NCBI GenBank assembly: GCA_030390025.1
Contig: CM059432.1
Location: 14,944,001-15,008,000, forward strand
DNA: 64,000 nucleotides
Direction of reading: 5' to 3'
DNA from: Squalus acanthias
Lineage: Eukaryota
Numbering within the stretch: position 1 is the stretch's first letter; every line of letters starts with the position of its first letter. This document shows, piece after piece, positions 7,143 to 61,999 of this stretch. The notes below the pieces were generated by a model. The model worked only from the letters and a program-made list of their open reading frames with translations, did no database searches and had not been told where the DNA came from. The position numbers were made by a program, and so were the translations under genes.

Positions 7143-7264
7143 ATTGTGAATTCTGGGAGATTCTCTCATTGCTAACTTACCTGACGAAGGAGCGACAGCT
7201 CCGAAAGCTTGTAAAATTAAATAAATCTGTTGGACTATAACCTGGTGTTGTGCGACTTCTCACT
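7143..7264 (+). mobile_element. Short hammerhead-bearing Penelope-like element, copy 1 (single arm, subfamily with 5' extension)
   Basis: TTAC-CTGACGA-A-GGAGC-GACA-GCTCC-GAAA-GC-TT-GTAA at 7177-7214, then AATAAA and TGTTGGACTATAACCTGGTGTTGTGCGACTTCTCAC. No clear TSD. Confidence 0.85.
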
Positions 7265-9831
7265 GTTGTTAATACTGAGTGAGGGAGGGGGGATCTGTTG
7301 AGTTTAGAGATTGTCATATTATTTCAACCCAAGTCCTATCTCCTAATGGCAAGAGAAGCAAGAAACCCAACTGTAACAGTAACACTTGATCCCAAACACC
7401 CAAAGAAACCCAGATAAAGAAATAACTTGCATTTATATTGCACCTTTAACATCCTCAGGATGTCCCAAAACTCTTCATGGCTGACGAAGTACTTTTTTAC
7501 ATGTAGTCACTGTTGTAATGTAGGTAGATGTGGCAGCCAATTTGCACACAGCAAGGTCTCAGATTAATGTGAGATTAATGACCAGATCATTTGTTTTTAG
7601 CGAAGTTGATTGAGGGATAAATATTTATTATTTTTTAAATTCGTTCATGGGATGTGGGCGTCGCTGGCAAGGCCGGCATTTATTGCCCATCCCTAATTAC
7701 CTTTGAGAAGGTGGTGGTGAACCGCAGAGGGCAGTTAAGAGTCAATCACATTGCTGTGGGTCTGGAGTCACATATAGGCCAGACCGGGTAAGGACGGCAG
7801 ATTTCCTTCCCGAAAGGACATTAGTGAACCAGATGGGTTTTTATGACAATCCGGTAGTTGCATGGTCACCATTACTGATACTAGTTTTTAATTCCAGATG
7901 TACTTAATTAATTGAAATATTGACTAGGACACCAGGAAAACTCCCCGGCTCCTCTTCGAATAGTGCCATGGGATCTTTTACATCCAGCTGAGAAAGCAGA
8001 CAGGGTCTCGGTTTAATGTCTCATCCGAAAGATGGTACAACACTCCTTAGTACTCCATTTGCTTACCTGCACCCTAATGTGTATGCATCTGACTGGATTC
8101 TGGTTAAGTATTTTCAATATGAAAACAGTTTAGAAATGCAACCCTACAGCTTGCCTTGTGTAAAAAAAAAATGAACCGCATCGGTAGCAATTGCATGGTC
8201 TCAGTATATGAAAGGGTTGCCAACCAACACTGAACATTACTGAGATCTCAGGCACTTTTTCCAGAGGGCCATATAACATAGCTCTTTGAATTATCTTATA
8301 ATGAACTTCAGGGAACTTACATAAGCAATTTGCACCTCGTTTGCCCATATCTCAGACTGTAAGAATAAAATGCTTAAAATGCTCACACATTCAGTATTTG
8401 TCACTTTAATTCCTCACTATCCCTTCATTATTGGGATTCGATCTGTCATAAATTGCAGTAGAATATTACCTAGACACTGTAAAATGTGCTTTGTGTTCTT
8501 TCAACCATAACTCATTACAGAGAACTTTCACGGCATCAATAACTCACCATCGCCCTTTTGGTTCGGCTCAATACCCTGCCTACTATTTAGTGATAAAATC
8601 TGATATAATAAAATATTAATTATGACCGAAAGGCTGCATTGGAAATATGAACTCAATTATGGCTCACATATTGTGAATGAAGGGCAGGGCAAAAAAGCCT
8701 CACGGTTTTAGAGGACTCAATATATAAAAGAGCCCTCGAAGATTAGAATTAGATTTATCTCATTTTTTTTTTTAAAAAGAGTTTAAGAATGCACTATAGT
8801 CATGATGGAATTCTAACGCTAAGATACATTTTGCCCCTAAATAATGCTTAACTTAGGAAGTTGCTACATAAACTTGATCTGTTCTTGCCTTTCTATATTT
8901 AGCTACCGGTAAAACCACAACCTTTGAAGGAAAAACTTACAATTGGCTTGGGCTAGTCCTGACACTGCTAATCCCCTTGAATCATACATTTGTCACAACT
9001 TGTGCAGTTCCCTGGGGCTGATAGCTAGTAGCTAGTGGCGATGAAATAACAGCAATCCTTGTCTACGCTCTGGGCAAGCAAATATAGAAAACACTAAGAA
9101 AGTGAGGCAGTATCAAGTTTATTCATTCATTTCAATTAGCTATTACCTGATATTGTTTCTATCGCAGCATTACTGCCCTGAAATTGCCTCATTGCAGTGC
9201 TCTTTTCTGTTTTGGTTTTATGCACAGTGAATGAAATCACTCAAATTGTTTCGGATGGATAAAGTCAATGGATAGGGAATTATTCCCAGGATACATTCAT
9301 ACTTGGTTCATTGGAACAAGAAAGCCTCTTGGGAACTGATCCATGTTCTACCGCAGAAACTGCAGAGCTTCACCCCTATAATTGTAGTTGATCCACGCAA
9401 CTGCTCCCAAAATTGTTAAAGTGAAAACATTTGAGGGTTTCATTCCCTCTGCATTATTTGTAGTGTAGCGGTCAACACATTCGAGTTCCATTCCTGTCTG
9501 TGTTATTTTAAAACAACAGTCAATTTGTGTGCAATAAACAAGCTAATGCCTGCATTAAAATAGTGCAGAGAGGAATTTAATGTGAGAATTTAACGTGTAT
9601 ATGGTAACCAGTGTGCTAACAAGACAATTCCCTGGTTCCTACCCGTGCTCTTATTATGTGACCTTAAGTAAGAAAATTATGAATGTCAAGTGTCACTCTT
9701 TTCCAAGTTAATCTTATTTGAGGTAATCATTAATACGCAGTGCAATGACAGACCGGGTTCTCTTTCCTACCCTGTGGCAGCTTAGGGAAGTAACTGTTCC
9801 CCATTGTTAACAGACAGTACAAATTTGTGAC

Positions 9832-10282
9832 GAGTTGGTAGCACTCTCGCCTCTGAGTCAGAAGGTTGTGGGTTCAAGTCCCACTCCAGAGACTTGAGCA
9901 CAAAAATCTAGGACTGACACTCCAGTGCAGTGCTGAGGGAGTGCTGCACTGTCGGAGGTACTGTCTTTCGGATGAGATGTTAAACCAGGTTAAACCTGCT
10001 CTCTCAGGTGGACGCAAAAGATCCCATGGCACTATTTCGAAGAAGAACAGGGGAGTTCTCCCCGGTGTCCTGGCCAATATTCATCCATCTACCAACATCA
10101 CGAAAACAGATTAGCTGGCCATTATCACATTGCTGTTTGTGGGACCTTGCTGTGCGCAAATTGGCTGCCACGTTTCCCACATTATAACAGTGACTGCACT
10201 TCAAAAGTACTTCATTGGCAGTAAAGCACTTTGGGATGTCCTGAGGTCATGAAAGGCGCTGTATAAATGCAAGTCTTTCTTT
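9832..10282 (+). mobile_element. tRNA-derived Deu-domain SINE (SacSINE1/AmnSINE-like) with L2-type tail
   Basis: Box A/B head (AGTTGGTAGC...GGTTCAAGTCC), central GGATGAGA...AAAGATCCCATGGCAC...CCCCGGTGTCCTGGCCAA, tail ATAAATGCAAGTCTTTC. Other copies at ~7420-8050(-), 15497-15810(-), 16080-17330(-), 20150-20740(+), 25228-25790(-), 39415-39670(+), 48280-48660(+), 52378-52750(-), 60455-60820(-). Confidence 0.85.
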
Positions 10283-12804: not shown

Positions 12805-12918
12805 ATTGAGAGGTCGCACAACACCAGGTTATAGTCCAACAGTTTTATTTTAAATCACAAGCTTTCGGAGTTACAACTCCTTCGTCGGGTGAAGTCCAAC
12901 ACCGGCATCTCCGCATCA
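12805..12918. mobile_element. Short hammerhead-bearing element, copy 2 (inverted arm joined to sense tail)
   Basis: TSD TTTGCATCCAGA at 12793-12804 and 12919-12930. The minus-strand arm has a mutated core (CCGACGA) and joins the plus-strand tail GTCCAACACCGGCATCTCCGCATCA. Confidence 0.88.
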
Positions 12919-14534
12919 TTTGCATCCAGAGGCAGTGATGCTTTACTGTCCACCGGTTGCCATAGATACTAAACTGTCTGGTCGAATCCAGTACACATTT
13001 TATTGACTACACAAAGTACAGATGGCCAGAAGGTAGTGTGTAAATTAGCTGTACCAAGACACGACTGCTGTGAGCTGACAGTCAAGTATCATTACCTATG
13101 AGGCTTATCTTCATACTTCCAGTACAGGTCTGGCACGTGAAGATGCATCTTGCCTGGTCTGGTATTTATATTTGCCTGCGCCAACCGCCCCCCCCCCCAC
13201 CCCACCAAAATTCAACTATTTGAACGGTTAAAAATGACCAGTAATAGATAATGGGGCAGGTAAACCAAACTAATTTCTCGGGAGAGATCCTGTGACCCAG
13301 CCTGACACCAATTAGATCTCGCAATAGTGCCCTGCCAGATATATTTCACTATTCAGACTACAAGATGACAACCAATTATGCGGTTTTGACGTGGCCTTGA
13401 CTGAATTGTGACCTGGAAAACAGATTTATTTTTTATGCACTTTGACAGAAAAGGACTTACTTTCAATTTAGACAGTTGAAGAAAAGCATTTAAATCTCAT
13501 TTGTGAGTTTTACTGTTAATCATTGCACCTCTCACATATCACTGCTTCTCGCATATCTCTAGAACATACAGCATTAACTCTCCAGATTATATTTCTATGG
13601 CCCCTGTGTCTTGTTAACTTTAAAGGTCTAGCAGGCAGATACTGCCTGACCCTGCTTGTTCACTTTCAGAATTGCATAATAATTGTCTTTTAGGATTTTA
13701 AATGGATTGGGAAAAACATACAACACAGGCCACTAAAGGAAAATTTTCCATTATCACATAAATCCCACTCTAAGGACTGATAGAACATTTCATGTTTGAT
13801 TCTATTTGATTGGGGTCAAGATTTGCAGAGTTTTAAATGCTTTTTAATTCTACCTGCTCCACCACCTTCTTCAGAAAATGGAATAAGAGATGACTGTCTC
13901 GGTTAGATTATGTGCTCAGAATCCTAACTTTGTCTATCTATTCAAAGAGCGTTCTTGCAGTGTCTGTGTTTTATACAGGGAAGAGGGTACATGACCATCC
14001 AAGTCCTCAATGATGGCAGAGCCCAGCATGTGAGTGCCAAAGATAAGACTGAAGCGTTTGCAACTATCTTTAGCCAAAAGTGCCGAGTGGATGATCCTTC
14101 TCGGCGCCTCCTCCTAAAGTCCCCACCATCATAGATATCAGTCTTTAGCAAATTCGATTTACTCCAGCGACATCAAGAAACGGCTGAGTGCACTGGACAA
14201 AGCAAAGGCTACGGGCCCCGACTATAACCCGGCTGCAGTGCTGAACACTTGTGCTCTCGAACTTGCCTGCAGCCAAGCTGTTCCAGTACAGTTACAGCAC
14301 TGGCATCTACCCGACAATGTAGAAAATTGTGCAGGTGCGTCCTGTCCACAAAATGCAGGACAAATCCAACCCAGCTAATTACTGTCCCATCAGCCTACTA
14401 CCAATCGTCAGCAAAGGTAATGGAAGGAATCGTCAATATTGATTTGTTGCTATTGTCGTCGTTAATGATGGCATCCCGCCACCACGTGTGTCCCAGTGAT
14501 GAGTGTGCTCTAAACATGTGTGTGTCCGAACGAT

Positions 14535-15012
14535 GGGTGTGTGATAACAGTGAGGGTGTGTGATAACAGTGTGGGTGTGTGATAACAGTGAGGGTGTGTG
14601 ATAACAGTGAGGGTGTGTGATAACAGTGTGGGTGTGTGATAACAGTGTGGGTGTGTGATAACAGTGAGGGTGTGTGATAACAGTGAGGGTGTGTGATAAC
14701 AGTGAGGGTGTGTGATAACAGTGAGGGTGTGTGATAGCAGTGAGGGTGTGTGATAACAGTGTGGGTGTGTGATAACAGTGAGGGTGTGTGATAACAGTGA
14801 GGGTGTGTGATACAGTGTGGGTGTGTGATAACAGTGAGGGTGTGTGATAGCAGTGAGGGTGTGTGATAGCAGTGAGGGTGTGTGATAACAGTGTGGGTGT
14901 GTGATAACAGTGAGGGTGTGTGATAACAGTGAGGGTGTGTGATAGCAGTGAGGGTGTGTGATAACAGTGAGGGTGTGTGATAGCAGTGAGGGTGTGTGAT
15001 AACAGTGTGGGT
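14535..15012 (+). repeat. 19-bp minisatellite, about 25 units
   Basis: (GGGTGTGTGATAACAGTGA)n with variants AGTGT and TAGCAG; accounts for the spurious HTPSLLSHT ORFs. Confidence 0.95.
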
Positions 15013-16160
15013 GCCGATGGTGCGCATGTCTTAATAGTCCATGTGCCCTGATGATAGAAATGTGGGTGTCAGATGGTCTATGTGCCTTGATGAGGAGTGA
15101 GAGTGTCTGATAACAGTGTGGGCTCCTGATGGTGCACATGTCCTGATGTTGCATGTGCGCTGATGTGAAATGTCTAGTAACAGTGTGGGTAACTGATGGT
15201 GCACATGTCCTGATGAGGAATGCGTGATGATGTCCTATCCTGACAGCGATGACGTAAAATGGGCAATATAGGTTTGGCCACTTGTTATACACCCCACCCG
15301 ATTCTTCTTCCAACAATGGAACCAATCGGGTTGGGTGTAGAATGAGCGGCCGATCCAATATCGCCTGTTTTAGGCCACTGCCAAAGGATAAAATGACCCC
15401 CCCATGTGTGTTCAGTTTGCCACCAGATGCTGAAGTATTTCTTGGATTGTCCCGCTGTGAGCACATTAGAGTTCTGGCACCGTTTTGAAAAAATAAAGAC
15501 TTGCATTTATATAGCACCTGTCACGTCTTATAGGACGTCCTAAAGCGCTTTACAGCCAATGAAGTACTTTTTGAAGTGGAGTCACTGTTGTAATGTGGGA
15601 AACGCGGCAGCCACTTTGCGCACAGCAAGCTCCCACAAACAGCAATGTGATAATGACCAGATGGTCTGGTTTTTTTTTTAGTGATGTTGATTTAAGGGAT
15701 AAATATTGACCAGGACACCGGGGATAACTCCCCCTGCTCTTCTTCGAAATAGGGCCCTGGGATCTTTTATGCCCACCTGAGAGAGCAGACGGGGCCTCGG
15801 TTTAACATCTCGTTTTGCTGCTATCAACTCAGTTTCCCAAAGAATGAGTGATCTTTGTGCATACAAGGGAAGGACTAGAGATAATTAAACTTATCATTGG
15901 TAATTAAGTTGCTGTAATAAAAATTAAATGCTTTGTCAAACAAACTGAAAACGATGATTAGAATTAAGTACAGTGATAACAAATGAAGCTAATTTAATAA
16001 TATGAAACAAAAACATTTCAAACCTGGAAGACATATCAGATTATATTTTAAAATTCATTTAAGTTTATATATCAAAGAAAGAAAGACTTGCATATATATA
16101 GCACCTTTCACAACCTCAGGATGCCCGAGAGCGCTTTACAACCAATGAAGTACTTTTGAA

Positions 16161-16936
16161 ATAACAACAGAAAACGCTGGAAAAACTCAGCAGGCCAGGC
16201 AGCATCCGTGGAGAGAGAAAGAGAGTTAACGTTTCAGGTCGATGACCTTTCGTCAGAACTGTGAAGAGCCGGAAATCAAATAGATTTAAGGCCAGAGTAA
16301 AGCTGGGAAAAGGGGGAGGGGATAAAAGAACAAAGGGGGAGATGAAGAGACATTAAGAGACATTAAGAGATATGCAAGGCTAGAGGTGGTGTTAATGTGA
16401 CAGATTAAGGCTGAAAGAAGTGTGAAATCCACTGGCAGAATGAAGGACAGCTGCCAGCTTCTAGGAGGAAAAAAAAGGTGGGGGGGGGGGCAAATAAAAG
16501 GATGGAAAAAATAAAATATAAATGTGATTGGAGCTGAGGTTATGATCTAAAATTGTTGAACTCGATATTGAGTCCAGAGGGCTGTAGCGTGCCGAAACGA
16601 AAGATGAGGTGCTGTTCCTCGAGCTTACGCTGCGCTTCCGTGGAACAGTGTAATAGGCCGAGGACGGTGAGGTCAGAGTGGGAGTGAAGCGGTGAATTAA
16701 AGTGACAGGCCACCGGGAGCTCGGGGTCCCCCTTACGGACTGAACAGAGGTGTTCCGCAAAGCGGTCACCCAATCTGCGTTTGGTCTCCCCAATGTAGAG
16801 GAGACCACATCGTGAGCAGCGAATACAGTATACTAAATTGCAGGAAGTACAAGTAAATCGCTGTTTCACCTGGAAGGGGTGTTTGGGGCCCTGGACAGTG
16901 GGAAGAGGGGAGGTGTAAGGGCATGTGTTGCATCAA
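16161..16936 (-). mobile_element. 5'-truncated Penelope-like retroelement with GIY-YIG endonuclease and 3' pLTR
   Basis: ORF 16869-16540 reads FTCTSCNLVYCIRCSRCGLLYIGETKRRLGDRFAEHL...LQPSGLNIEF. TSD AAGTACTTTTGAA at 16148-16160 and 16937-16949. Interrupts a SINE. Confidence 0.92.
16224..16260 (-). ncRNA. Minimal hammerhead ribozyme motif of the GIY-YIG Penelope family (second copy at 4801-4837, minus strand)
   Basis: Minus strand reads AGTT-CTGACGA-A-AGGTC-ATC-GACCT-GAAA-CG-TT-AACT. Confidence 0.78.
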
Positions 16937-19206
16937 AAGTACTTTTGAAGTGTAGTCACTGTTATAATATCGGAAACGGGGCAGCCAATTTGCACACAGC
17001 AAGATCCCTCAAACAGCAATGTGATAATGAGCAGATAATCTGTTTTTGAGGTGTTGATTGAGGGATAAATATTGACCAGGACCCCAGGGAGAACTCAACT
17101 GGTCTTCTTTGAAATAGTGCCATGGGATCTTTCACGTCCACCTGAGAGAGCAGACGGGGCCTCGGTTTAACATCTCATCCGAAAGACGGCACCTCCGACA
17201 GTGCAGCACTCCCTCAGCACTGCACTGGAGTGTCAGCCTGGATTATGGGCTCAAGTCTCTGGAGTGGGACTTGAACCCATGACTTTCAGACTCGGGCGAG
17301 AGTGCTGCCAAACTGAGCCAGGGCTGACACTATGTCAAGTTCCATTCATTTGTATATTACCACAGTGTCCCACTTGTAGTTGAAAAATTGTATTTCTGAG
17401 ATTGGTTAAAACAATTTAAATGTAAGTTCAATTGATATAGTGTGGCCTACATTTCTGATGTAGCAGGAATACTGCTGGACCTTGCACCTCCCCGAGTGCT
17501 GACCCTGCTGGATTTCCTGGGTCGGGCTAATTTAAAATTATTTTTCAGGCTCCTGGCAGAATTCCTGCTGCTATAAAGTCACCTGCCTTAGGTGGGGAGC
17601 ACAGGGGAGAGGAGGGGAAATCGCTGTGCTGTGGCCCACACGGCTGCAATTCATTTTTTTTTTTAAAGCATCTTTTTCCCCAGTGGTCTCTCTGCAATCG
17701 ATTGCACGAGCCTTGGCTGACCATAAATATTTACAGCTCCCTTGCACTGCCTCAGCAACATTGGATGCCAGGAATGGAACGGTAAGGTTGCCAAGGTGCA
17801 AATAAGAGAAAATATTTCAGATGCTGTATTCCCATCGTTAACCTATCATTTGAAGGTGCCGATTGCAAATATTGGGGGGCATGTATGGTGTGAGCCGTCG
17901 CTTCCAGTGGGCAATCGTGGAAGTGTCAGCAGGCACCTGGGAGCCAGTGAGATGGCGTCTCAACCCACTGCCTGCTACTGCCAAAGTCGCGTGGAAAATG
18001 CAGGCCGACACAGTTCACTCATTGGCAATGTCGGTTCATAGGATGGCTGGTGGGGAAACTGGAAAAATGTCAGCCTGGCGCAGTAGCGGGCGCCCTTCTG
18101 CTGTTGGGGTTGAGGCGCATTGCGGGGGGGTTAGCGGGAGTTTTACTCTGCATTTCCTGTGCTGTGCCTGAACGCAGTGCTGACACTGGACCTGTGAAAT
18201 GGGAAAGTAATCCATCCCTCAGCACTTACTCGCACCCTTCATTTTGATGAACACCAAAAATATAAAACGCGCGTTTCCATGTTAATAAGATGACAGCGGT
18301 GGAACACTGCAATTTTCCACTAATCTGCTGCAGATAAAATTCCAATAATTCCAGGTGACATCACAAAGTTAATCGTTCAATAACAATGTCACCACACATC
18401 AAACTGAATGAAACTACTTAACTGCGATATCAGCCATGACACACGCTGGCAATGAGACATTTCTCGGCCTTCAACAGATGACAGCATAATAGATCAGCTG
18501 CTTTCTTTTGTTGTACAACACACTTTAGTAATCAAAGATAATGGGAGCGCGGGAGTGATTATTATATCACCCCAGCTGAACCTGGGAGCAAACGATTTTC
18601 TTGCCGTCACTCGCACTCTGACATTACTCTCCGACGTAATTACAATCTACCATTCCCTTTTGAAATTGCACGGTATTCATTACGAGCGATCACCATGGCA
18701 ACTGTAAAAAGTAACAAAGATACCCGGAGCGAGGACTCTAGGATACTCTCGGAATTCAGAGGATATCATACACCACAGGGGCAAAGCGTGAGCGAGCACT
18801 AATCATCACCTGAGCACGGTGATGGGATCACAGCTTTTGAAATCACTCCATGTTTATGTTCTGGAATGCTAGTGGATCTCCTGTGGTGTTGCGCATGGTA
18901 AGTCTGAGGATACCTTGTCTTACCCTATGTAATATATGATGTAGTATCAGGCCACTGATCTACAGTGACTGAATAAGTCAAATTGCATAGAATTACAGAA
19001 ACAGGCCATTCGGCCCAACAGGCCTATGCCGGCGTTTATGCTCCTCACAGGCCTCCTCCCACCCCTCTTCATCTCACACTATCAGTATAACCTTCTATCT
19101 CTTCCGCCCTTGTGTGTTTATCTAGCTTCCCCTTAAATGCATCTATGACTAAAGTAGGAGTGTTAGTGATATTTTTGGACTTAAACTATATGTTTACTTG
19201 CATATT

Positions 19207-24167: not shown

Positions 24168-26894
24168 GTGGTGGGGGCATCTATGGGAATCAAGGGATAT
24201 GGGAATCGGACGGGAAAGGGGAGTTGAGGTCGAAGATCAGCCATGATCTTATTGAATGGCGGAGCAGGCTCGAAGGGCCGTATGGCCCACTCCTATTTCT
24301 TATGTTCTTATCTCACAGGATACTGAACACTGTTTCATTTACTCTTCATTAGCCCCCGTGGTTGCCCTAAGTGAGTCACCGAGGTCAGCACAGACCAGGA
24401 ATGAAACCTCCGACCCTCCTGATCTACATGAGTCTATCACGTTCAGCAGAGCATTTATCAAGTTAGCTGCTGGATGTATCTTTCAAAGAAAAATTCTAAC
24501 AAAGTAACACGCGAATAAAATACCTGCATCACAGGAAATGAGTGAAGTATGGGGAGGTTTTAAATATAATGGTCTGGGAAATCCGCAGCCAGTCCAAAGC
24601 TCTCCTGCTGTAACTTTGGTGGGTGTCCACTAGAATGGCAGGAAATTAGGCCTCTTCCCAGCTCAAACATGGCCAACTTTGTAAAGAGGGGTTGGGTCCA
24701 GAAGTAGAGAGTCCCTACGTCAGGATTCCTCGCTCCCCAGGTTTACAGTGGGAACCGGCATATGGTTGATGGAGGAATGCCTGGTTGGCGTAACTTCCCA
24801 CAACCAGCTTGTGGGAACCATCTGAGGCTTCGGGGCTGTGATCATGGTTTGGTCCTCCAAAGAACAAGGCCAAATTATTTTTTTCAAATGTTAAAGAATT
24901 TCCTTATAAATGGGGCAGTGGAGGCAGCTCTCTGTTCGTGCCAACGAGGACCCAGCTTTCCCCCATACCCTCACCCTCCCGGCCAGGCAATCTTCATCAG
25001 GCCAGCGCCCCAGATGTGCGCCGAGTGGAACGGGCACCCAACCTTCGGAAACAAATCAAAGAATCTCCCCTGATCCCAGAATGTAGTCCGAGGCCAGTGG
25101 TGGAGATGCGCGGCAGTTACGCAGAGAATGCCCAATTGTGGGTTTTTGGCACCAGTGTTTATTTTGTTCGTAAAGAAGCCCTGTGTAACACACACAGCAC
25201 AGAATTATCCAGTTCAGAAGAATTAAAGAACTTGCATTTATATAGCACCTTTCATGGCCTCAGGATGTCCCAATGCACTTCACAGCCATTAAAGTATTTT
25301 TGAAGTACAGTCCCTGGTGTAATATAGGGAAACAAGGCAGCCAAATATGTACACAGCAAGGCCCCACAAGTAGCAATAAGAAACATTATTTTAGTGATGT
25401 TGGTGGAGGAGTAAATGTTAGCGGGACTGTAGGAGAACTGCCCTACTTTTCTTCCAAAAAGTGCAATGAAATCTTTTACGTCCACCTGAGAGAATAGCCT
25501 CGGTTTAAGGTCTCATCCCAAAGACGGCACCTCCGACAGTGCAGCGCTCCCTCAGTACTGCACTGAGCCGTCAGCCTGGATTATCGGGGTTCTCCTGCTC
25601 ATCCGCTATAGCGTTGGAGGGAAAATTGCAGCAGCTCCGGAAATGTGCCATTTTCCCTGGGATTTCCGTGGCTCTTCCCTCCCAAGTTACACTGGGCGAG
25701 CGGGAGAACCCCAGCGTGGAATATCACCTGCGATGTGCTCAAGTCTCTGGAGTGGTGCTTGAATCCATGACCTTCTGCCTCAGACAACTGAGGCAGGGCT
25801 GGCACCTTTGCTCATCCAGTGACTCCGTTCAAGACGTTTTTGATCTATCTTTCTCCCCATTTCCCTCTCTTTATTCCCTCAAGGGGAGGGCTGAACTTCT
25901 GTTAAGTGCTGGCGCTCTGATCGATAAACTGGCAGCAATTACTTTGTTCTGTATGTTCAAGAAGCAGAACTAAAGTCGCATTGTAAGAATGTAATAAGAT
26001 CGATAAGAAAGCTGTCCTCAATCAAGAGAGGTATAAAAATGAAGTGAGATGAATTTTAAAGGTGAGGATTTACTGACTGATTCACAATAAACCTTCTAAC
26101 TGCAAGGCTGCATCCCTGTTACCATCTCCTTCAGTGTAACAGCCCAGAAAGGTGACAAGAAGAATGAAGTTTTAATAACATGTTAGACCAGTACCATGCT
26201 GATTACTCTAGAGGGTTGGATTTTAAGCATATAAAGGGTTGTATTGTGTACATGGGGTATGGGGGCGGTTGACGTTTGTGCATAGAGGTGTGAATTATTT
26301 GCACAGAGGGATCTGGATTTTTCGTACAGATTGCACTTGGAATCTTAAGTGTAGGAATTAGACCCCGCTGCACCTGATTTTTGGGGGAGCAGAATGGGGT
26401 CCCATGGACCAGTAGCACTGTGGTGAACTTGGGACCTACAATAACAACTTACATTTATATAGCACCTTTAACGTAGTAAAACGTCCAAAGGCACTTCACA
26501 AGAGCGCTATCGAACAAATTTTGATACCGAACCACATAAGGAGATATTAGGACAGCTGGCCAAAAGCTTGGTCAAAGAGGTAGGTTTTAAGGAGCGTCTT
26601 AAAGGAGGAGAGAGAGGTAGAGAGGTTTAGGGACGGAATTACAGAGCTTAGGGCCAAGGCAGCTGAATGCACGGCCGCCAATGGTGGAGTGATTAAAATC
26701 GGGGTTGTGCAAGAGGCCAGAATTGGAGGTGCGTAGAGATCTTGGAGGGTTGTGGGGCTGGAGGAGATTAGAGATAGGGAGGGGTGAGGCCATGGAGGGA
26801 TTTGAAACCAAAGATGAGAATTTTAAAATCAAGTCGTTGGCAGACCGGGAGCAAATGTAAGTCAGCGAGCACTGGGGTGATGGATGAACAGGAT

Positions 26895-29800
26895 TCAAAA
26901 ATCTATCGATCTCTGTCTTGAATATACTCAACGACTGAGCCTCCACAGCCCTCTGGGGTAGAGAATTCCAAAGATTCACCACCCTCTGAGTGAAGAAATT
27001 TCTCCTCATCTCAGTCCTAAATGGCCGACCCCTTATTCTGAGACTGTGACCCCTGGTTCTAGACTCCCCAGCCAGGGGAAACATCCTCCCTGCATCTACC
27101 CTGTCAAGTCCTGTAAGAATTTTGTATGTTTCAATGAGATCACCTCTCATTCTTCTAAACTCTAGAGAATATAGGCCAAGTCTACTCAATCTCTCCTCAT
27201 AGGACAACTCCCCCATCCCAGGAATCAGTCTGGTGAACCTTCATTGCACTCCCTCTGTGGCAAGTATATCCTTCCTTAGGTAAAGAGACCAAAACTGTAC
27301 ACTATACTCCAGGTGTGGTCTCACCAGGGTCCTATATAATTGCAGTAAGACGTCTTTACTCTTATATTCAAACCCTCTTGTAATGAAGGCCAGCATCCCA
27401 TTTGCTTTCCTAATTGCTTGCTGTACCTGCATGTTAACTTTCAGTGATTTGTGTACAAGGACACCCAGGTTCCGCTGAACACCAACATTTCCCAATCTCT
27501 CACCATTTAAAAAATACTCTACTTTTCTATTTTTCCTACCAAAGTGGATAACTTCACATTTCTCCACATTATATTCAATTTGCCATGTTCTTGCCCACTC
27601 ACTTAGCCTGTCTATATCCCCTTGAAGCCTCTTTGCATCCTCCTCACAACTTACATTCCCACCTAGCTTTGTATCATCAGCAAACTTTCGCGAATCTTTT
27701 CCTTTTTACATACGTATAGAAGCTTTTACAGTCTGTTTTTATGTCTCCCGCTAGATTACTCTCATATTCTATTTTCCCTTTCTTTATCAATTTCTTGGTC
27801 CTCCTTTGCTGAATTCTAAAATCTTCCCAATCCTCAGGCTTACTACTCTTTTTGGCAACATTATAAGCCTCTTCCTTTGATCTAATACTATCTTTAACTT
27901 ATCTTGTTAGCCACAGTAGGACCACTTTTCCTGTGGAGTTTTTGTGCCTTAAAGGATTTTATATTTGTTGTAAATGTATTAATTCCTTAAATGCTAGCCA
28001 TTGCTTCTCTACCATCATACCCTTTAATGTAGTTTCTCAATCTACCTTAGCCAACTCGCCCCTCATACCTACGCAGTTTCTTTCATTTAGATTTGAGACC
28101 CTAGTTTCAGATTTAACTAAATCACTTTCAAACTCAATATATAATTCTTCATATTATGGTCACTCTTCCCTAAAGGCCGCTTTACTAAAGGTTATTAATT
28201 AACTCTTTCTCATTGCACAATACTAGATCTAAAATAGCCTTTTCCCTAGTTGGTTCCTCAACATACTGATCTAGAAAACTATCTTGCATACATTCCATGA
28301 ATTTGCCCTCCGCACTATTACTGCAAATTTGGTTTGCCCAGTCTATATGTAGATTAAAGTCCCCCATGATTACTGTATTACCCTTGTTACATGCACCTCT
28401 AATTTCCTGATTTTTACTCTGCCCTACATTACAACTATTGTTTGGGGGCCTATAAACAACTCCCACCAATGTTTTATGCCCCTTGCTATTTCTTAGCTCC
28501 ATCCAAACTGATTCTACTTCTTGATTTTTGGAGCTAAGATCCTTTCTCTCTGCTGTCTTTATCCCATCCTTTATTATCAGGGCTACCCCTCCTCCTTTCC
28601 ATTTTGCCTATCTCTTCTAAAAGGTAAGTATCCTGGAATATTTAGTTCCCACCCTTGGCCACTTTGCAACCATGTCTCCGTTATGGCTATTAGATCAAAC
28701 CTGTTAATTTCTATCTGCGCTATTAATTAATCTTCATGCATTCAGATATAGTGCCTTTAGCTTTGACTTATTTCTATTTTTCCCTAATGTCACCTTAGTC
28801 ACTGATGCCCTATTACCTTTGTTATTCTCTCTGTCCCTTCCTGACTCACTCTGCTTATTTTTACCCAAGACTCTGCTCTGCTCTAGAGCCTTGACATTTC
28901 TCTCGCTGCTTTTAAATTTACTCTTTTCTGAATCCTCCCACCCCCTTCATTAGTTTAAAGCCCTGTCTACTGCCCTAGTTATTCAGTTTGCCAGGACACT
29001 GGTCCCAACCAGGTTTACGTGGAGCCTGTCCCAACGGAACAGCTCCCTCTTTCCCCTGTACTGGTGCCAGTGCCCCATGAACTGAAACCCCTTCCTCCCA
29101 CACCACTCTTTGAGCCACGCATTTAAACCTCTAATCTGTTTGTCCCTATGCCAATTTGCACGTGGCTCAGGTAACAATCCAGAGATTATTACCTTTGAGG
29201 TTCTGCTTTTTAATATGGATCCTAGCGCCTCAAACTCCCTCAGCAGAACCTCATTCCTAGTTCTACCTATGTCGTTGGTTCCTATGTGGACCACAACAAC
29301 TGGATCCTCCCACTCCCACTCCCACACCAAATTCTTCTCCAGCCGCGAGGAGATGTCTTTAACCCTGGCACCAGGCAGGCAAAACAACCTTCGGAACTCT
29401 TGGTCACAGCTGCAGAGAACAGTATCTATCCCCCTGACTATACTGTCCCCTATCACAACTACATTCCCTTTCACTTCCCCACTTGAATGGCCTCCTGCAC
29501 CATGGTCAGTTTGCTCATCCATCTTGCAGACTTTTCCCTCATCCACACAGGCAGCAAGAACCTCATACCTGTTGGACACCTGACGAAGGAGCAGCGCTCC
29601 GAAAGCTTGTGATCTCAAATAAAGCTGTTGGACTATAACCTGGTGTTGTGCGACTTCTCACATTTGTCCACCCCAGTCCAACACCGGCATCTCCACATCA
29701 TGGCTGTTGGACAAAGGCAAAGGCTGAGGCTCCTCCAGCACTGCACCTTGGGTCTCCTTACCTGGGTGAGTTGGAGTCACACCCTCCTGTCCCTGACCAC

Positions 29801-40980: not shown

Positions 40981-41102
40981 TCATCATAAATAATAGCATT
41001 AAACAATATCGGTAGAATTCTTTTTAGTCAGCACCACAACGTTTGAGAATTGTCAAATGAAGTTGCTAAGAAATCTACATCTACATTTCTGTTTTCCCAA
41101 TA

Positions 41103-43289: not shown

Positions 43290-43670
43290 ATGTCACGCAC
43301 TCCAAGCCAATTGTTATTCTCTGTAACACACTTTAGACCAACTGTTATTCTCTCTAACATGTTTCAAACTAATTGTTATTCTCTGTCACAGACTTTAGAT
43401 CAAATGTTATTCTCTCAAACACATTCCAAACCAATGGTTATTCTCTGTAACACATACCAATCTAATGATTATTCTCTGTAATAAGCACTTCACAGAAACT
43501 GCTATTCTCGGTAACACATTCCAAATCAATTGTTATTCTCTGTAACACACACTTCAAAGCAACTATTATTCTCTCACACACTCATAAGTCATCTACTTCC
43601 CCGTATGCAAGAGATGTCCAGCCTCTGTTATTCTCCTTATAGCACACTCCCAGTCATTTGTTGCTTTCTA
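43290..43670 (+). repeat. Degenerate ~31-bp tandem repeat
   Basis: Recurrent AATTGTTATTCTCTGTAACACA at roughly 30-33 bp spacing. Confidence 0.8.
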
Positions 43671-51461: not shown

Positions 51462-51523
51462 CATGATGCGGAGATGCCGGTGTTGGACTGGGGTGGACAA
51501 AAATGAGAAGTCGCACAACACCA
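51462..51523 (-). mobile_element. Short element copy 7, truncated (tail side only, no ribozyme)
   Basis: TSD GGTTATTGAG at 51452-51461 and 51524-51533, with microhomology GGTTAT to the element. Confidence 0.85.
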
Positions 51524-52904
51524 GGTTATTGAGTACATAGAAGTGTCAGGACTGGGGGAAAAAAAAGCATTAACGGTCAACTGGCCAGTCCTCAAAGATC
51601 AAAACATATTATTAGATTATTCCATGTTGTTTCAGGAATTGAGCCTGTACACAAACACCCCACTGAGCTGGTAATGTTCCTTAAAGGCACTTAGCACCAG
51701 CTCAAGCTATTGCCCTGATGAGCATCCCTAACACTCATGATGGAAGTAGAATCAAAGAGCCAGCTGCACCATCAGGACCCCAATAAAAATGAAATCGTTA
51801 CAAAGAATGATTGAATGACTTGGACTTTGTTCTTTAATGTTAATTGTGTTGTTTTTTTTGTTGTTGTTGAATATTTAATAGGGAAAACTGATGTGTTTAT
51901 TATGAGAACTGGCTTGGACAGAGCTTATTCAGAAGAGCTGCTAAACCCAACATGGTGAGTAAGTTGAATTCGCACACAACATAACTGGATGATATCACGG
52001 AGGCTCCCTAGGTTAACGACTATCCCAAGCGATATTAATTCAGCTCCCGCATGCTCTCAGATTCAATAACTCCTTCCAACCAGTTCCCTTCAGAATTCGC
52101 TGTTTAAATTTTTTTTTTAATCCGAAGATCAACAGACTGAAAAAGAACAATTAATAATAACTCTTTTTCAGCAAAATCATTTTAAATGGTGAAGCTCCCT
52201 CTTGAAAACAGTGAGAATTCAACTATCCAGCAGCTTAGTGATCAAATGTACCATCCAGGAAATCACTGAACTATGTTGATCAAAAAAGTCCTAGGTTCAG
52301 TCCCGCGTCTGTGTTGGGTTAGCTGAGCCCAGTATGGGTGCGACTATTGACCTCAGCACCATTTGTGCCAGGAAGAAAGAAAGACTTGCATTTATATAGC
52401 ACCTTTCACGACCTCAGAATGTCCCAAATTGCTTCACAGCCAATGAAGTACTTTTGAAGTGTAGTCACTGTTGCAATGTAGGAAACGCGGCAGCCAATTT
52501 GCACACAGCAAGCTCCCACAAACAGCAATGTGAGAGTGACCAGATAATCTGGCTTTTTTTTTTTAAGTGATGTTGATTGAGGGATAAATATTGGCCAGGA
52601 CACCAGAGGTAACTCCCCTGCTCTTCGAATAGTGCCATGGGAGCGCAGACAGGGCCTCGGTTTTAACATCTCATCCGAAAGACGGCACCTGTGACAGTGC
52701 AGCACTCCATCAGTACTGCACTGGAGTGTCAACCTAGATTTCTGTGCTCAAAGAAGGGCAAAAGGCAGATAGGGCTCCCACTCTTAATTGCTATTCTGTG
52801 ACATTCGATGACTCAACATGTGAAGAATGGCCATTTGAGTGAGGTCCCAACATAACCCAGCGTGAATCAGTGTATTCAGGAGGGAGAAGAGAAAGCTGGT
52901 GGCA

Positions 52905-52996
52905 CTTCACCTGACGAAGGAGCAGCGCTCCGAAAGCTTGTGATTTCAAATAAAACTGTTGGACTATAACCTGGTGTTGTGCGACTTCTCACATTT
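52905..52996 (+). mobile_element. Short hammerhead-bearing element, copy 8 (single arm without tail)
   Basis: CTTCAC-CTGACGA-A-GGAGC-AGC-GCTCC-GAAA-GC-TT-GTGA...GCGACTTCTCACATTT. No clear TSD. Confidence 0.85.
52907..52943 (+). ncRNA. Minimal type I hammerhead ribozyme motif (representative copy)
   Basis: Stem I TCAC/GTGA, core CUGACGA(+A), stem II GGAGC/GCUCC, GAAA, palindromic vestigial stem III (AGCU), H17=U. Predicted cleavage after 52939. Confidence 0.8.
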
Positions 52997-55978
52997 GGAA
53001 AAAAACAAGACAGTTGGGTTTTTTTAATTTTGTTTTCGGGATGTGGGCAAAACTAGCAAAGCTACATTTATTGCTCATCCCTAGTTCCCTCAAGAAGGTT
53101 GCGATGGGTCTTTTTGAACCACTGCAGTCCTTGTGTGAATTTATGAGCAATTGATGTATATTCCCTTTAATATGACTCACAGTTACAAGTGTTACCTTTA
53201 TATTGGAAATATTACTCCAACACTAGTCCTCATACATATAATCTGAGTACTTTAGGTATCTATACCTCAATCCTTTGCTGATTACATGGCACTTGGAGCA
53301 TGTTTCTGTTCAGTATATGGGTCCCCTTATGTTAATATAATAATGATTGAAGCTAATGGGTTGCAATGATAAAGCTTCTGTGGTATCAGATATATAAAAA
53401 TCAGTTGAATGAATGTCAGTCAGTAAGTTAATTGGGATGGTAACATAGGGTTCAATTATTGGAGTTTTTAATTTAAGTTTTAGGAATTTGAGGACAAATA
53501 TAAATGTCATAGTTTGTTTTATTTTATCCAAAATTGAGATCAATTAATAAGTCCTCAAACCACTTATAGATGTTAAGTTTAAAAACAAACGTATGGGGCG
53601 GGGGAAGAGAAGGAAGTTGTGATGACTGGGCCCCACCAGGGGTGGATGAAGTACTTCAAAAAAGTGTTTTTCTTCTTTCCTTTTATTTGGTTGTGTGAAG
53701 GATGGAAAGATTACAGCTGGAATCACTTTGGAGCGTTTGTACCACAGTTTATGCATGTTGAGCTGGATACCAGCCAGGGTTTATACAGTGGATGCCTTAG
53801 TTTTGCAGTTTCTAATTCAATCTGAAATAAGTAACATTTTATTTGTAAGAATAACTATAAACAGAGACCCCACCACCCCCCTCCCCAACGTCTTGTTCTC
53901 AGCATTTAACTCAGACTGCTCTATTGGAAAGAGTTCATTTTAGATCAGAGATTCCTTTTCACAAAGGTAACAGATGAGGGAAGCAAATCAGTCTGTCCTT
54001 CCATGGAAAGCTATGGTTCCCCTATAAACCTCACCCCTTGAAACACGGTCACTAACTTCATACGCAGCAAACTGCTACCGCCAAGTCTCTGCCCTGCCCA
54101 GCGCAGCCTCCCTGCTGGCTTCATGCTGACTACTGAGGTGAGGGCAAGCAGCCAAATACAAGCCCGCAATTGGAAGCTCCTGCCGATAGAGCTGGCCCCT
54201 GACAGCATTAAGAAGAATTATTGGCCCTGCTTCTCTCACAGACCTGGCCCACCTGTATATGGATCGAGACCCAGGGATCAAACAGAGAACCCTTGCTGTT
54301 GTACTCCAACTTACTAAAATAGATCAACCAACAGCTACACAATGGCTGGGAGGATGAATGGAATGGCTCCTAGAGTTTTTTGTCTCCACTTCCCTAACTG
54401 GAATATTATTCCAGGTATTAATTTAAGGTGGGCAACTGTTTCCTGCCAACAGTTCTGAACTTGTTTTTACCCGTTTGTACCGACATCCCCCATGCCCTTT
54501 AAATAGTGCTCCAGATATACCTTTTTTTCCCCACTTAGTATCTTATATAAGATTCCCTCTCATTCCCTCATTTTAAGTCTGAAAGAGCCATCGGTCCTTA
54601 TCACTCTGACCTCTGACACAAGGGATGAGCCTTGTGACCTTCTCCGCACTGGCTCCAGGGTTTTGATATTTCCCTTATGCCCGTAGAAGTGTTGTAAGAC
54701 GTGTTTATTCCTTGTGGGAAAGTGCTGAGTGCTGCCCAGTTCACAGCTCTAGCAGGTAACGTCCAGCCGAGGACCCCTGGGAGTCGAGCTTAGCCCGCGG
54801 TCAATAAAATGTCACTTCAAAGACTTGTGTTGACTGACGTCAAATGCATTTCAAATGGACCAACCTGAAACAATAATCCGACTCGAGTTTGCAACAATCA
54901 GCTTTATTACTCCCTGTTAAAAACTGTGAAAGATTCCAGAGAGATTTAAAATGTGCCCTCGGCTTTATAGCGAATATAAAGCTAGCCCTAACACAATGGT
55001 TTATTGCCGTGTCCTTCACTTCTAGGACCTGGAATCAATCAATGTCAGACTTGTGGGATGAAACATTTCCTCTGTCATTCTCAGCTGCGAGGGCACTATG
55101 TGAAATAAATGTGGGCGGTTTTAATATGGTTCCTAGTGAGTGCAAGTGGATGGCATGAAACCATAATTCATAACAAAGCTAGCCATCCCACTCACAAGAG
55201 TCCACAAGGACAGCTGCTGTAGTAAGTGGAACAATTAACACTGGTACAGTGGAGGGAGGTGCACTTCCTCATTGCGTGCAACATTGAAAGAGCGTGATTG
55301 CGAGCCGTGTACATGTGCTGTCAGACCCAATGCCGAGAATGACCTGGTAATTAGCGTGTCTTTATTTGTTTCCTAGCAGTGGTGGGACTGAGTTGGTTGC
55401 AACATAATGCCATTTCTCTCCGTGCTCTCGATTTCTTGATGCTCAACTTAAGGCCTCTGTCCACGTCAGTTTCCTCATGGAGGCCACCTCCACCTCAGCT
55501 GGAAGGGCAGCAATTTCTTGAAACTCACCGGAAGATTGAGGGCGAGCTGTTGCTTTCACGAGGCTAATGGCGGAGCGGCACAAATCATGCAACAACTTGT
55601 GGTGATTCGCAACTGAAAGGGTATCTCTTCCGCATCACCAATTGCTGGACAGTTTACACACTAATAACAGCCTGCACATTAAACTCGACCTTATTTTGCC
55701 AGCAAATTCTGGCCCGTTGTTTTATGCACAGAAAAGGGGGCACTGCGAGCAAACTGCGTCCAGGTACGAGCATTATATGAAAGGGGTGTTCCCTAAATTT
55801 TGGTTACATTTCTGCCCCATGGGCCGGGTGGAAGCTGCAGTTTACACGTCCAGGATGTGTGGGATTGTAAGAAGTGGTCTTTCTGCCTGCTTGCCCGTTT
55901 TAAGAGCTTCAATACGCATCTCAGGTGACCATGGAATGTGAACACGTGATGTCCAGCAATTCATGCAAAGCTTTCCGT

Positions 55979-59658: not shown

Positions 59659-59868
59659 GCCCCTCGAGCCTGTTCCGCCATTCAATTAGATCATTGCTGA
59701 TCTGAATCTTTGCTCCATTCACCCACCTTGGTTCCATATCCCTTAATACCCTTACCTAAAATAAAAATCTGTCAGCTCTGTTTTGAAATTTTCAATTGAC
59801 CTAATGTCAACAGCTTTTTGGGGGGAAAGGGTTTCAGATCTCCACTACCTTCTATGTTACCTACTAAT

Positions 59869-60302
59869 GGGCAACACGGTGGCATAGTGGTTAGCACTGG
59901 TGCCTCACAGCGCCAGAGACCCGGGTTCGAATCTGACCTCGGGTGACTGTCTGTGTGGAGTTTGCACATTCTCCCCGTGTCTGCGTGGGTTTCCTCCGGG
60001 TGCTCCGGTTTCCTCCCACAGTCCAAAAATGTGTGGGTTAGGTTGATTTGGCTATGATAAATTGACCCTTAGTGTTAGGGGGGATTAAATATGTGGGGTT
60101 ATGGGGATAGGATGGGATATGTTAGGGGGAATTAAATACGTGGGGTTACGGGGTAGGGTGGGATATGTGTACTGTGGGGATTAAAGCAGGGACAGGGTAC
60201 TGGATTTGGATGATCAGCCATGATCGTATTGAATGGCGGAGCAGGCTCGACGGGCCGAATGGCCTACTCCTGCTCCTAGATTCTATGTTTCTATGTTTCT
60301 AT
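59869..60302 (+). mobile_element. HE1-type V-SINE with CR1-derived 3' tail
   Basis: GGTGGCATAGTGGTTAGCAC...GGTTCGAATC head; V-domain TGTGTGGAGTTTGCACATTCTCCCCGTGTCTGCGTGGGTTTCCTCCGGGTGCTCCGGTTTCCTCCCACAGTCCAAA; (TTCTATGT)n tail. Confidence 0.88.
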
Positions 60303-61150
60303 GAAGTGCTTCCTGACATCATCCCTGGATGGATCAACTCTAATTTTAAAGTTATACTCCATTGTCCTCGACTCCCCCACCAGAGGAAATAGTTTCTGTG
60401 TAGCTACCCGATCACGCCTCTCACAAATGACACAAATCACTGCACATACAATTAATTACTTTGAAGTGCAGCGGCTGCTGATATGTAGTTAAACAAGGGA
60501 GCTATTTTGGAACAGAAAGATCCTTCAAACAGAAGTGGGATGAATGACCATTAATCTGTTTTAGTGATATTAGTTGAGGGACACTGGGAGGACTCTTGGC
60601 ATATTTTGGCATCTTTAATGTCCACCTTAAATGACGGAGCAGGCAGTCGGAAGCCTTGTCTTAATGTCTCATCTGAAGGACATAACCTCTGACAAGGCAG
60701 CGCTCCCTCAGTACTGTACTGAAGTGTCAGCTCAGATTATGTGCTCAAGTCCGAGTGTGGAGCTGCAACCCACAAAAGCGTCTAAACCCGAGGCGAAAGC
60801 GCTACCCACTGAGCCAAGCAGACAAATGTCAAGACACCACTGAAGCGTGAGGGGCTTTCCAAGTGGAATGCATCACATGATGGGGCCACGGTTAAGCTTT
60901 GTGTGGAATCTAAATGATGAGTTTAACAGATGAATCTGTCAGCGAGCAGTCAGAAACAATGCAATCAGTTCACGGGGCTTTGAAAGTCCCCTCGTCATGT
61001 TACGCTTAAAATCAGCCAGCGGGCACACCACCCTATTTGGCCTTGTAACTTTTCCAAACCAGTATGGCAGCAACTTTCACTACCTAAGAGAAATAATTTA
61101 AGAAAATTATTTTTCAAAAATGAATAGAATTAGGTAAATAAACAAACAAT

Positions 61151-61999
61151 GGGCCTGAATTTGCGGTCGGAGGCATCTCCCCGCAAATAAAGTCCGTGCC
61201 TACCTGATGGTCCCCCGTAGGCACCGACTGTTCCGGTCCTGGGCCTCTATGCAAACGCCTGCGTAAGGCCCACGTATCCTAGGGGTGCACGCGGTTTGCG
61301 AGAGCCCCCTGGGATCACGTGGGCCGACCCGCGGACGGAATCCCCATAAGCATGAATGGAAAATCCCCCCAAAAAAACATTTACACGCCAATTAAATAAA
61401 AAATAAAATTACATGTTTAAGATTAATTAAAATACAATTTAACGAAACATTTAAAACAAAAATGTTATTTTTTGAAAAATAAATGTAAACCCTTTAAAGG
61501 GGCTAAAAAATAACCTAAACTTATTTTACAGGTTTATTTAATAATTAAAAAAAATATATGTTGTATATTCATTTAAACTTTTACCAGGCGTAAGAATTTC
61601 ACGGGCATTCGCTGGGCAGTGTCTCCGCCAGCAAATGTCCTTTTCCTGGGGATTCGTACGGTCTGTCAATAAGATTCTTGAGAAGTCGCACAACACCAGG
61701 TTATAGTCCAACAGATTTATTTAAAATTACGAGCTTTCGGAGCTGTTGCCCCTTCGTCAGGTAGAGGTACAATGTACCTGAGGAAGGGGCAACAGCTCCG
61801 AAAGCTCGTAATTTTAAATAAATCTGTTGGACTATAACCTGGTGTTGTGCGACTTCTCATTTTTGTCCACCCCAGTCCAACGCCGGCATCTCCGCAATAA
61901 GATTCTTGACAGATCGCAAGTTCCGGGGCTTCGCGCGCGAAAACCCAAAACTTGCGGGGCCCTTGCGTATGTGGCCAGAGGCCCCGGAAAATCCGGGCC
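61151..61999. mobile_element. Second copy of the Harbinger-like MITE (hosts element copy 9)
   Basis: GGGCCTGAATTTGCGG ... CCGGAAAATCCGGGCC, flanked by AAT and ATT. Confidence 0.75.
61682..61894. mobile_element. Short hammerhead-bearing element, copy 9 (palindromic), inside a MITE
   Basis: TSD CAATAAGATTCTTGA at 61667-61681 and 61895-61909. Inverted arms with an ~11-nt spacer; the plus arm has core CTGAGGA. Confidence 0.92.

Follow-up and report, generated by a model that had tools for sequence, protein, structure and literature searches.

The repeated hammerhead motifs in a 64,000-nucleotide stretch of the Squalus acanthias genome (here, the window) belong to the pseudo-LTR (pLTR) ends of a Penelope-like retrotransposon with a linker of the Neptune/Nematis type. 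We conclude that selection on the element's source subfamilies has probably preserved the fold and core of this minimal type I hammerhead, likely as a slow, conditional self-cleaver. A first-pass annotation of the window had identified the hammerhead motif correctly but missed its parent, the Penelope-like pLTR. The class is already known and the family is a further member of the Penelope elements with minimal hammerheads, an ordinary finding whose value is quantitative.

The repeated motifs of the window are nine insertions of the terminal repeat (family 1) with 11 complete hammerhead motifs, and TSDs of 10 to 15 bp flank eight of the nine. All of the letters listed earlier are found in the sequence, with copy numbers 1 to 9 read as the nine insertions. 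Insertion 1 (6838 to 7263, plus strand, 12-bp TSD; motif position 7181) is a 5'-truncated element in which ~36 codons remain from the end of the GIY-YIG ORF, followed by the 3' UTR, a TATA-like box, and a hammerhead at 7177 to 7214 whose stem I is TAC/GTA. Insertion 2 (12807 to 12919, minus strand; motif position 12888) is a short arm with a CCGA (U4C) hammerhead at 12855 to 12892 and an inverted tail fragment at 12893 to 12919. Insertion 3 (29577 to 29704, plus strand, 10-bp TSD; motif position 29580) comprises a hammerhead from 29576/7 to 29612, the 5' UTR, and a tail ending at the ORF ATG.

Insertions 4, 5, 6, and 9 are inverted arms with no single orientation. Insertion 4 (31400 to 31833, 14-bp TSD) carries hammerheads at 31489 to 31526 (minus; motif position 31522) and 31747 to 31784 (plus; 31751), and its arms enclose an inverted copy of host DNA from 30718 to 30926. 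Insertion 5 (38814 to 39018) has a complete hammerhead at 38902 to 38939 (minus; 38935) and a sister plus arm (38937) truncated at C3. Both hammerheads of insertion 6 (40700 to 40984), at 40748 to 40786 (minus; 40782) and 40857 to 40895 (plus; 40861), belong to the GGAGC/GCTTC lineage. Insertion 9 (61679 to 61896, 15-bp TSD) pairs a CTGACGA hammerhead at 61727 to 61764 (minus; 61760) with a CTGAGGA hammerhead at 61774 to 61811 (plus; 61778). Insertion 7 (51462 to 51529, minus strand; 51529) retains only the 3' end and tail, 5' truncation having removed the hammerhead. In insertion 8 (52903 to 52997, plus strand), the hammerhead lies at 52907 to 52943, with C3 at 52911 and a predicted cut after 52939, and the arm starts at most 1 nt from a putative transcription start, the A at 52904.

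A full-length relative, L121, carries a single 891-amino-acid ORF with RT and GIY-YIG. The ORF matches RVT_1 (E = 1e-8) and contains DKG, YIDD, YIG, and CCHH motifs. Its linker between RT and EN holds a CX4CxxC motif (CHGNLCKTC at residue 753), fitting the Zn-finger-like CX2-5CxxC linker that marks Neptune and is common to Nematis (PMC8557442). A Pfam search gave a GIY-YIG match on the sister lineage L061 and none on L121 or L052 themselves. L121 consists of an inverted partial pLTR, a direct 5' pLTR, the ORF, and a 3' pLTR, placing direct and inverted pLTRs around the ORF as in EN+ Penelope-like elements. The optional tail and frequent 5' truncation of the family are likewise those of EN+ elements; the 3' ends of family 1 arms fall into two groups, and exactly one tail is present in 98 of 101 head-to-head arm pairs. 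The hammerhead sits within the pLTR, with the 3' UTR on one side and, on the other, a 91-nt leader ending at the ATG of the ORF that encodes RT and GIY-YIG. An apparent second hammerhead just after the L121 stop codon was rejected, as it is degenerate, lacks G8-A9/GAAA, and is missing from other lineages. A non-LTR retrozyme was also rejected, given the dispersed or head-to-head arrangement of the window copies and the presence of an ORF in the family.

The family anchor has 97,107 matches in the genome (genome counts here are exact-pattern matches). The family is also present in other organisms, in contigs of four sequencing runs, and the sequencing-run search listed no RNA run as carrying it. 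A search limited to the literature on Penelope elements in sharks did not return a description of the family.

The window also contains a second Penelope-like family. One fragment (16162 to 16934, minus strand) includes the end of a GIY-YIG ORF (16932 to 16567) and a hammerhead at 16224 to 16260 with stem I AGUU/AACU, stem II AGGUC/GACCU, and the palindrome ACGU; another terminal fragment (4743 to 4921, minus strand) has a hammerhead at 4801 to 4837. The ORF is 32 to 42% identical to that of family 1. The core and its extra A are identical in the two families, whereas the stems are wholly different, and A/G10.1-U11.1 and ACGT occupy the min-HHR positions.

Family 1 hammerheads have helices I and II and the min-HHR core (C3 U4 G5 A6 N7 G8 A9, G12 A13 A14 A15.1, and U16.1 H17), which carries U4C in one subfamily. 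They also show the further min-HHR features, namely an extra nucleotide, a G10.1-C11.1 pair, and palindromic 15.2/16.2 positions: A9.1, between positions 9 and 10.1, and G10.1 occur in 124/124 insertions, and AGCT is kept. Stem I, stem II, loop II, the AGCT palindrome, and the restriction of H17 to T or C are as described in the first-pass annotation, with the exception of a fourth, T-A pair in stem I, which is not kept (of 124 insertions, 12 have C.A, 7 have G.A, and 3 have A.A). Some of these broken pairs are junction truncations; CTAC and GTAC lineages, in which the pair is broken, also occur in long copies. N7 varies between invariant single-stranded neighbors. Its G state, noted earlier from CTGAGGA at 61778, is a lineage trait elsewhere (28 of 124 insertions), although the sister arm of that very copy reads CTGACGA. 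An Rfam search gave no match at the gathering score in the window and no hammerhead match at E ≤ 10 in 52800 to 53100.

Selection for RNA structure in several source lineages, as proposed from the window copies, is borne out: fold and core are retained among lineages, and inserted copies decay at the core. All 11 variant types found in at least three insertions are tolerated by hammerheads, versus none of nine rare non-CpG types (124 insertions from 169 arms, with five junction-truncated or misparsed arms dropped and the fourth stem I pair excluded; Fisher p = 6e-6; permutation, 4/200,000). Lineage-level changes thus fall only at tolerated positions, and inserted copies decay at random. Selection works on source elements, and the activity once implied for individual genomic copies does not fit the core decay that these show. 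An invariant core is shared by lineages with 3' UTR identities of 55 to 78% in distant pairs and 90 to 93% in two close pairs. Because conservation is about as high in the downstream leader as in the core, invariance alone is no proof of catalysis.

Covariation contributes less than had been proposed. The copies are related rather than independent, and the two-sided compensatory changes in family 1 trace to only two independent events on the tree; the two-sided pair count, for family 1 only, does not exceed that of shuffles (149/500). When the tree is based on the 3' UTR and leaves the hammerhead out, the U.G state of stem I falls between the U-A and C-G lineages. U.G has 1,784 genome matches, mostly of one haplotype, and C.A, searched with a shorter pattern, has 324 scattered ones.

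The CCGA core had been regarded as damaging to insertion 2. Instead, CCGA marks a successful subfamily, to which insertion 2 belongs: the haplotype CCGA/GGAGT-TGTA-ACTCC has 845 exact genome matches, compared with 223 for the same haplotype with T, A, or G at position 4 (T in 98 of the first 100 listed). CCGA is the derived state on the tree. CpG decay was rejected as the source of the 21% T at position 4, since neighboring N7 decay, in just 6/115 arms, is too low. According to PMC9608096, which cites Ambros and Flores 1998, U4C remains active in viroid-type hammerheads, and the hammerheads of peach latent mosaic viroid and CtaHVd-LR1 have CCGA variants with the identical CUGA-to-CCGA core change. 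In those RNA replicons the variant is in the minority, whereas here it marks a genomic retrotransposon subfamily.

Spontaneous cleavage as a dimer is not supported by the computed folding energies, which are nearest-neighbor values that ignore tertiary contacts and protein: the double-hammerhead structure lies above the co-fold minimum in 12/12 motifs (e.g., -19.5 versus -29.3 kcal/mol). Monomer z-scores are weak (-0.64 for 52900 to 52996), with one of eight folds beyond -2. For Xenopus retrozymes, eight of nine dimers failed to cleave.

The 5' ends of the arms bear on the state of the RNA that was copied. No arm begins at the predicted cut site (0/115), where there is no 5'-end pileup, and 110/115 span it. 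Thirty of 115 start 0 to 9 nt 5' of the core, with a peak 30 nt below the TATA box and an extra G; these are probably copies of capped, uncut RNA, and uncut RNA is likely the source of many of the short copies. Relative to the putative start, the hammerhead spans +8 to +44. A start ~13 nt 5' of C3, predicted for TAC lineages, gave no clear peak among 53 arms. Another position, searched genome-wide as a control for the extra G (1,923 matches), had 88 G and 12 A among the first 100 listed; this G-rich control is confounded by sister arms and microhomology, so it speaks neither for nor against a cap.

These results are consistent with the following scheme. A TATA/Inr-like promoter would start transcription ~7 nt 5' of C3 in CAC lineages. 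RT would begin at either of two sites within the leader, often copying just the capped, uncut 5' end and so generating tens of thousands of short hammerhead arms. Self-cleavage is predicted to be slow and conditional on a second copy or the element's protein. It would be limited to RNAs with two hammerheads, from read-through or tandem transcripts, and would yield unit-length RNA that, circular or tandem, could template more-than-unit cDNA, rebuilding the promoter upstream of the start site. On balance, we lean toward reading the genome as a fossil record of the ribozyme's in vivo state, which, with the U4C subfamily thriving, would be that of a slow, conditional cutter selected at the mRNA 5' end. 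Under such a reading, transcription of a capped RNA would begin from the pLTR promoter 7 nt ahead of the hammerhead core, internally starting RT would copy the uncut 5' end with the cap as an extra G, leaving thousands of solo hammerheads, and cut RNAs would leave almost no copies.

It is unlikely, though the most serious alternative, that the fold persists because it binds protein or positions RT at the RNA 5' end, with cleavage vestigial or unimportant. The arms that span the cut site, with none starting at it, the equally conserved leader, and the ~4:1 excess of the U4C subfamily over its CUGA sisters are in line with it, as are the normal in vitro insertion of PAc hammerhead mutants (PMC11167929) and the success of Naiad elements without canonical hammerheads. 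Against it, the variation of N7 and H17 stays exactly inside catalytic tolerance while the single-stranded catalytic bases do not vary, in two families whose stems are unrelated, and viroid-type hammerheads with U4C are reported to be active. A feedback switch, in which a protein-triggered cut ~36 nt from the cap decaps the element's own mRNA and limits expression, cut RNAs never serving as templates, is less probable still and is compatible with conditional self-cleavage rather than exclusive of it. It would suit the putative capped start 7 nt 5' of C3, the lack of arms starting at the cut, and the protein requirement of PAc cleavage (PMC11167929), but the palindromic helix III of both families (AGCU and ACGU) points to two-hammerhead pairing. 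Shared descent with only a DNA-level promoter constraint just below the TATA/Inr, covariation arising by chance, would accommodate the few two-sided events and the motif's position near the start but is very improbable and largely refuted by loop II, whose 3 to 9 nt displace the 3' half of the hammerhead, the disruption of the TGACG word in lineages with G or A at N7, the tolerated-variant test, the excess of U.G over C.A, and the identical geometry of the second family on different stems.

In a young family with ~10^5 arms and many subfamilies, lineage-level change is separable from decay. The genome thereby gives direct evidence of catalytic tolerances being maintained by selection, which bears on whether Penelope hammerheads function or merely ride along, a question raised in PMC8557442. 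Natural variants suited to assays (U4C, N7 A/C/G, and U.G in stem I) come with the family as well. Copying of capped, uncut 5' ends is a candidate mechanism for solo hammerheads; if true, the fossil-record reading would explain the masses of solo minimal hammerheads in metazoan genomes and make their function testable.

Minimal hammerheads with covariation in metazoan Penelope-like pLTRs were described by Cervera and de la Peña in 2014 (PMC4209133), and the main-text portion of that paper covered here does not name cartilaginous fish. Compared with that description, helix II has 5 bp here versus 7 to 8 bp in the Schistosoma min-HHR, with helix I reliably 3 bp; the ~10^5 arms exceed the 4,000 to 9,000 motifs of coelacanth and Xenopus; and the large U4C subfamily is unlike the min-HHRs reported. 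PAc, a Poseidon element of Anolis carolinensis, likewise has a pLTR hammerhead, is copied mainly from uncut RNA, and has two internal start sites for RT, which give an optional 30- to 40-nt tail (Frangieh et al. 2024, PMC11167929), comparable to the single tailed arm of most pairs here; its cleavage is protein assisted, and none of its reads terminate at the cut site. Its ORF begins within stem II, on the upstream side of the cut, whereas the ATG here is 91 nt downstream of the cut and marks the end of the tail; in addition, the ORF here has the CX2-5CxxC linker that Penelope/Poseidon lack. Animal non-LTR retrozymes (bioRxiv 10.64898/2026.07.22.740005) are similar as short noncoding units with type I hammerheads related to those of PLE pLTRs, but they form head-to-tail tandem arrays, whereas the arms here are dispersed singly or head-to-head with TSDs, in a family with its own ORF.

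Scanning the whole window for the core and searching it with BLAST identified 11 complete motifs of the type described in the first-pass annotation, plus two truncated arms (pieces derived from the pseudo-LTR, or pLTR, of a Penelope-like element), in nine insertions. All the stem, loop and H17 letters listed there were correct, and the predicted cut in copy 8 falls after 52939. Two inverted arms are present in four of the nine insertions, so those arms are not independent, and target-site duplications of 10 to 15 bp occur at eight of the nine. No Rfam model matched the hammerheads in a search of the window. Between its arms, insertion 4 carries 209 nt of nearby host DNA duplicated perfectly in inverted orientation (30718-30926 and 31533-31741), which suggests a template switch onto flanking sequence as the element integrated. 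The window also contains tandem arrays at 14433-15108 and 43291-43602 (19-bp and about 31-bp units) and many other dispersed-repeat fragments (e.g., 3307-3933, 15487-17249, 25218-25587, 26844-27420, 41111-41655, 52372-52745, and 62783-63130), which we take to resemble CR1/L2-type LINE 3' ends and SINE-like elements. In the genomic loci compared, Penelope arms are frequently nested within repeats of these kinds.

Exact-match searches of the 3.7-Gb genome returned 13,224 matches for a copy 8 35-mer and 97,107 for a 26-nt anchor 3' of the motif. Upstream of the motif, longer copies carry a 3' UTR of about 240 to 340 nt and then a GIY-YIG domain; insertion 1 extends into the last 36 codons of this ORF. 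At the protein level, 48,901 candidates yielded 150 scored matches. The full-length relative L121 consists of an inverted partial pLTR, a direct 5' pLTR with a hammerhead, an ORF, a 3' UTR, a second hammerhead, and a tail, the Penelope-like layout described in PMC8557442 and PMC11167929. Its ATG lies 91 nt 3' of the predicted cut and opens an ORF of 891 aa with RVT_1, DKG, YIDD, a CX4CxxC linker, YIG, and CCHH; the linker assigns the element to Neptune or Nematis. Among 101 head-to-head pairs, exactly one arm is tailed in 98, both in 2, and neither in 1. Close pLTR relatives appear in contigs from four sequencing runs of four organisms (aligned to L121:6640-6980), indicating that the family is common to related species.

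The hammerhead is under constraint at the level of lineages. Our survey covered 301 arms in 200 insertions, and the test set comprised 124 insertions found independently of the core, via anchor, linker, protein, or random region. In these 124, stem-I pair 3 is C-G in 89, U-A in 33, U.G in 3, and C.A in 0, with the linker pattern fixing the stem-I 3' strand in one stratum; the inner stem-II pair is C-G in 117, U-A in 5, U.G in 2, and other in 2. Established hammerhead tolerances are any base at N7, any base except G at H17, and stem changes that keep the pair. With U4C (CUGA to CCGA) also counted as tolerated, following PMC9608096, we divided non-CpG variant types into those common to at least 3 insertions and those restricted to 1 or 2, leaving out five truncated or misparsed arms, four CpG-type variants, and the fourth stem-I pair. 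Tolerated types make up 11/11 of the shared class versus 0/9 of the rare (Fisher p = 6e-6), and random reassignment of types reached 11/11 in 4 of 200,000 trials, values that are only indicative because the tolerance rule and threshold were chosen after the haplotypes had been seen.

The first-pass annotation proposed a four-pair stem I and compensatory changes across copies. The fourth pair is broken in the CTAC and GTAC lineages, evidence against a stem of four pairs. Stems do pair in 98.8% of cells across 18 haplotypes, a level reached in 0/500 shuffles, but only two independent two-sided changes remain, since a phylogeny of 96 long copies, computed solely from their 3' UTRs, puts the U.G state intermediate between the U-A and C-G lineages and restricts U-A in stem II to one clade. 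The count of pairs with two-sided change is unremarkable (149/500 shuffles of the 18 haplotypes, a control that ignores kinship). Genome-wide, U.G has 1,784 matches, mostly of one haplotype among the first 100, and C.A has 324 over many haplotypes with a shorter search pattern. The leader 3' of the hammerhead shows roughly the same conservation as the core, and inserted copies have lost core bases (G12A, G8A, A13C, and U16.1A), which cautions against over-reading core conservation.

The CCGACGA core of copy 2 had been considered damaged and instead marks a subfamily: its haplotype has 845 exact matches with C at position 4 and 223 without it, and some U4C members retain ORF stretches of 518 to 696 codons. 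CCGA reportedly preserves self-cleavage in viroid-type hammerheads (PMC9608096); either the ribozyme would tolerate U4C or fast cleavage would be unnecessary. In another large subfamily (L025, L042, L153, and relatives), loop II is lengthened to 8 to 9 nt with the palindrome ATCGAT, which could permit loop-loop pairing between two hammerheads.

A second Penelope-like family, with 8,454 genome matches and an ORF 32 to 42% identical to that of the first, is present on the minus strand at 16162-16934 (ACGU-palindrome hammerhead, motif at 16256) and 4743-4921 (terminal piece, motif at 4833), and as plus-strand fragments at 34331-34419 and 37241-37325. Its hammerhead keeps the core and an extra A; stem I is AGUU/AACU, stem II is AGGUC/GACCU, and the palindrome is ACGU. 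This comparison between families is the strongest covariation, and the first-pass annotation had overlooked it. Directly 3' of the second-family motif, a pyrimidine tract ending CACAG|ATG resembles a putative 3' splice site. In L121 (4066-3700, minus strand), directly 3' of the stop codon, a hairpin after CTGACG looks like a decayed second-family hammerhead; it is not conserved in other lineages.

Where copies begin was read from 115 arms collected irrespective of the hammerhead. The cut site is spanned by 110, and no arm has its start at that site or 1 nt to either side. Thirty start 0 to 9 nt 5' of C3, where about 7 would be expected from the 66 arms whose ends fall between -30 and +60. The most frequent start, with 8 arms, is the A of ACTTCAC, which lies 30 nt below a TATA box, and a TATA-like word lies 35 to 45 nt 5' of C3 in 22 of 24 listed cluster representatives, the other two being internally deleted. 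A TATA/Inr pair has been noted in rotifer-element pLTRs (PMC3846280), and an internal promoter lacking TATA is described for Drosophila Penelope (PMC2377424). G immediately precedes the start A in 8/8 peak arms versus 19/73 elsewhere, and in 5/8 versus 11/31 of a second, biased set. Genome-wide, 2,934 arms show a purine at this position, which is a pyrimidine in the parent; the first 100, counted by hand, gave 81 G and 19 A, and 91 junctions read at 90 of those places gave 73 G and 18 A. An antisense donor ends exactly at the extra base in 21 G and 0 A cases; 11 of the 21 are one recurrent palindrome needing no extra G, and the 10 left still give an excess (p about 0.001, by hand). L338 and L360 carry the extra G on both arms. 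In full-length L1 insertions, an extra G is a sign of capping (PMC11702581), and arms starting at this A with an extra G are probably copies of capped 5' ends. Against this reading stand a control position that is likewise G-rich, though confounded, the lack of a clear peak in TAC lineages, and the misplacement of some arm ends where a close reference is lacking. Four of 30 loci (L265, L266, L271, and L273) share an identical head-to-head junction with two extra bases 5' of the start A, which may reflect either a small non-autonomous element that is copied whole or a way of joining that recurs.

We propose that transcription would begin just 5' of stem I and that reverse transcriptase would start at two leader sites, as at the two sites demonstrated for Anolis PAc (PMC11167929), often copying only the capped, uncut 5' end. 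The 5' pLTR of L121 reaches 121 nt further upstream than the putative start, implying a template longer than one unit. Such templates would be supplied by cleavage and circularisation of two-hammerhead transcripts, on the 2014 proposal, and equally by uncut tandem transcripts. For cleavage, a lone hammerhead without helix III would need a partner or protein help. A 2014 study described minimal hammerheads in the pLTRs of Penelope elements, together with a dimer model and covariation (PMC4209133); a search of openly accessible papers (for the 2014 study, its main text), outside Repbase and Dfam, found no description of this first family and no publication on capped short copies. Folding predictions favoured the double hammerhead as the dimer for none of 12 motifs, and monomer z-scores were weak. 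These predictions fit the low activity reported for minimal Penelope hammerheads (PMC4209133) and the inactivity of 8/9 Xenopus dimers (bioRxiv 10.64898/2026.07.22.740005).
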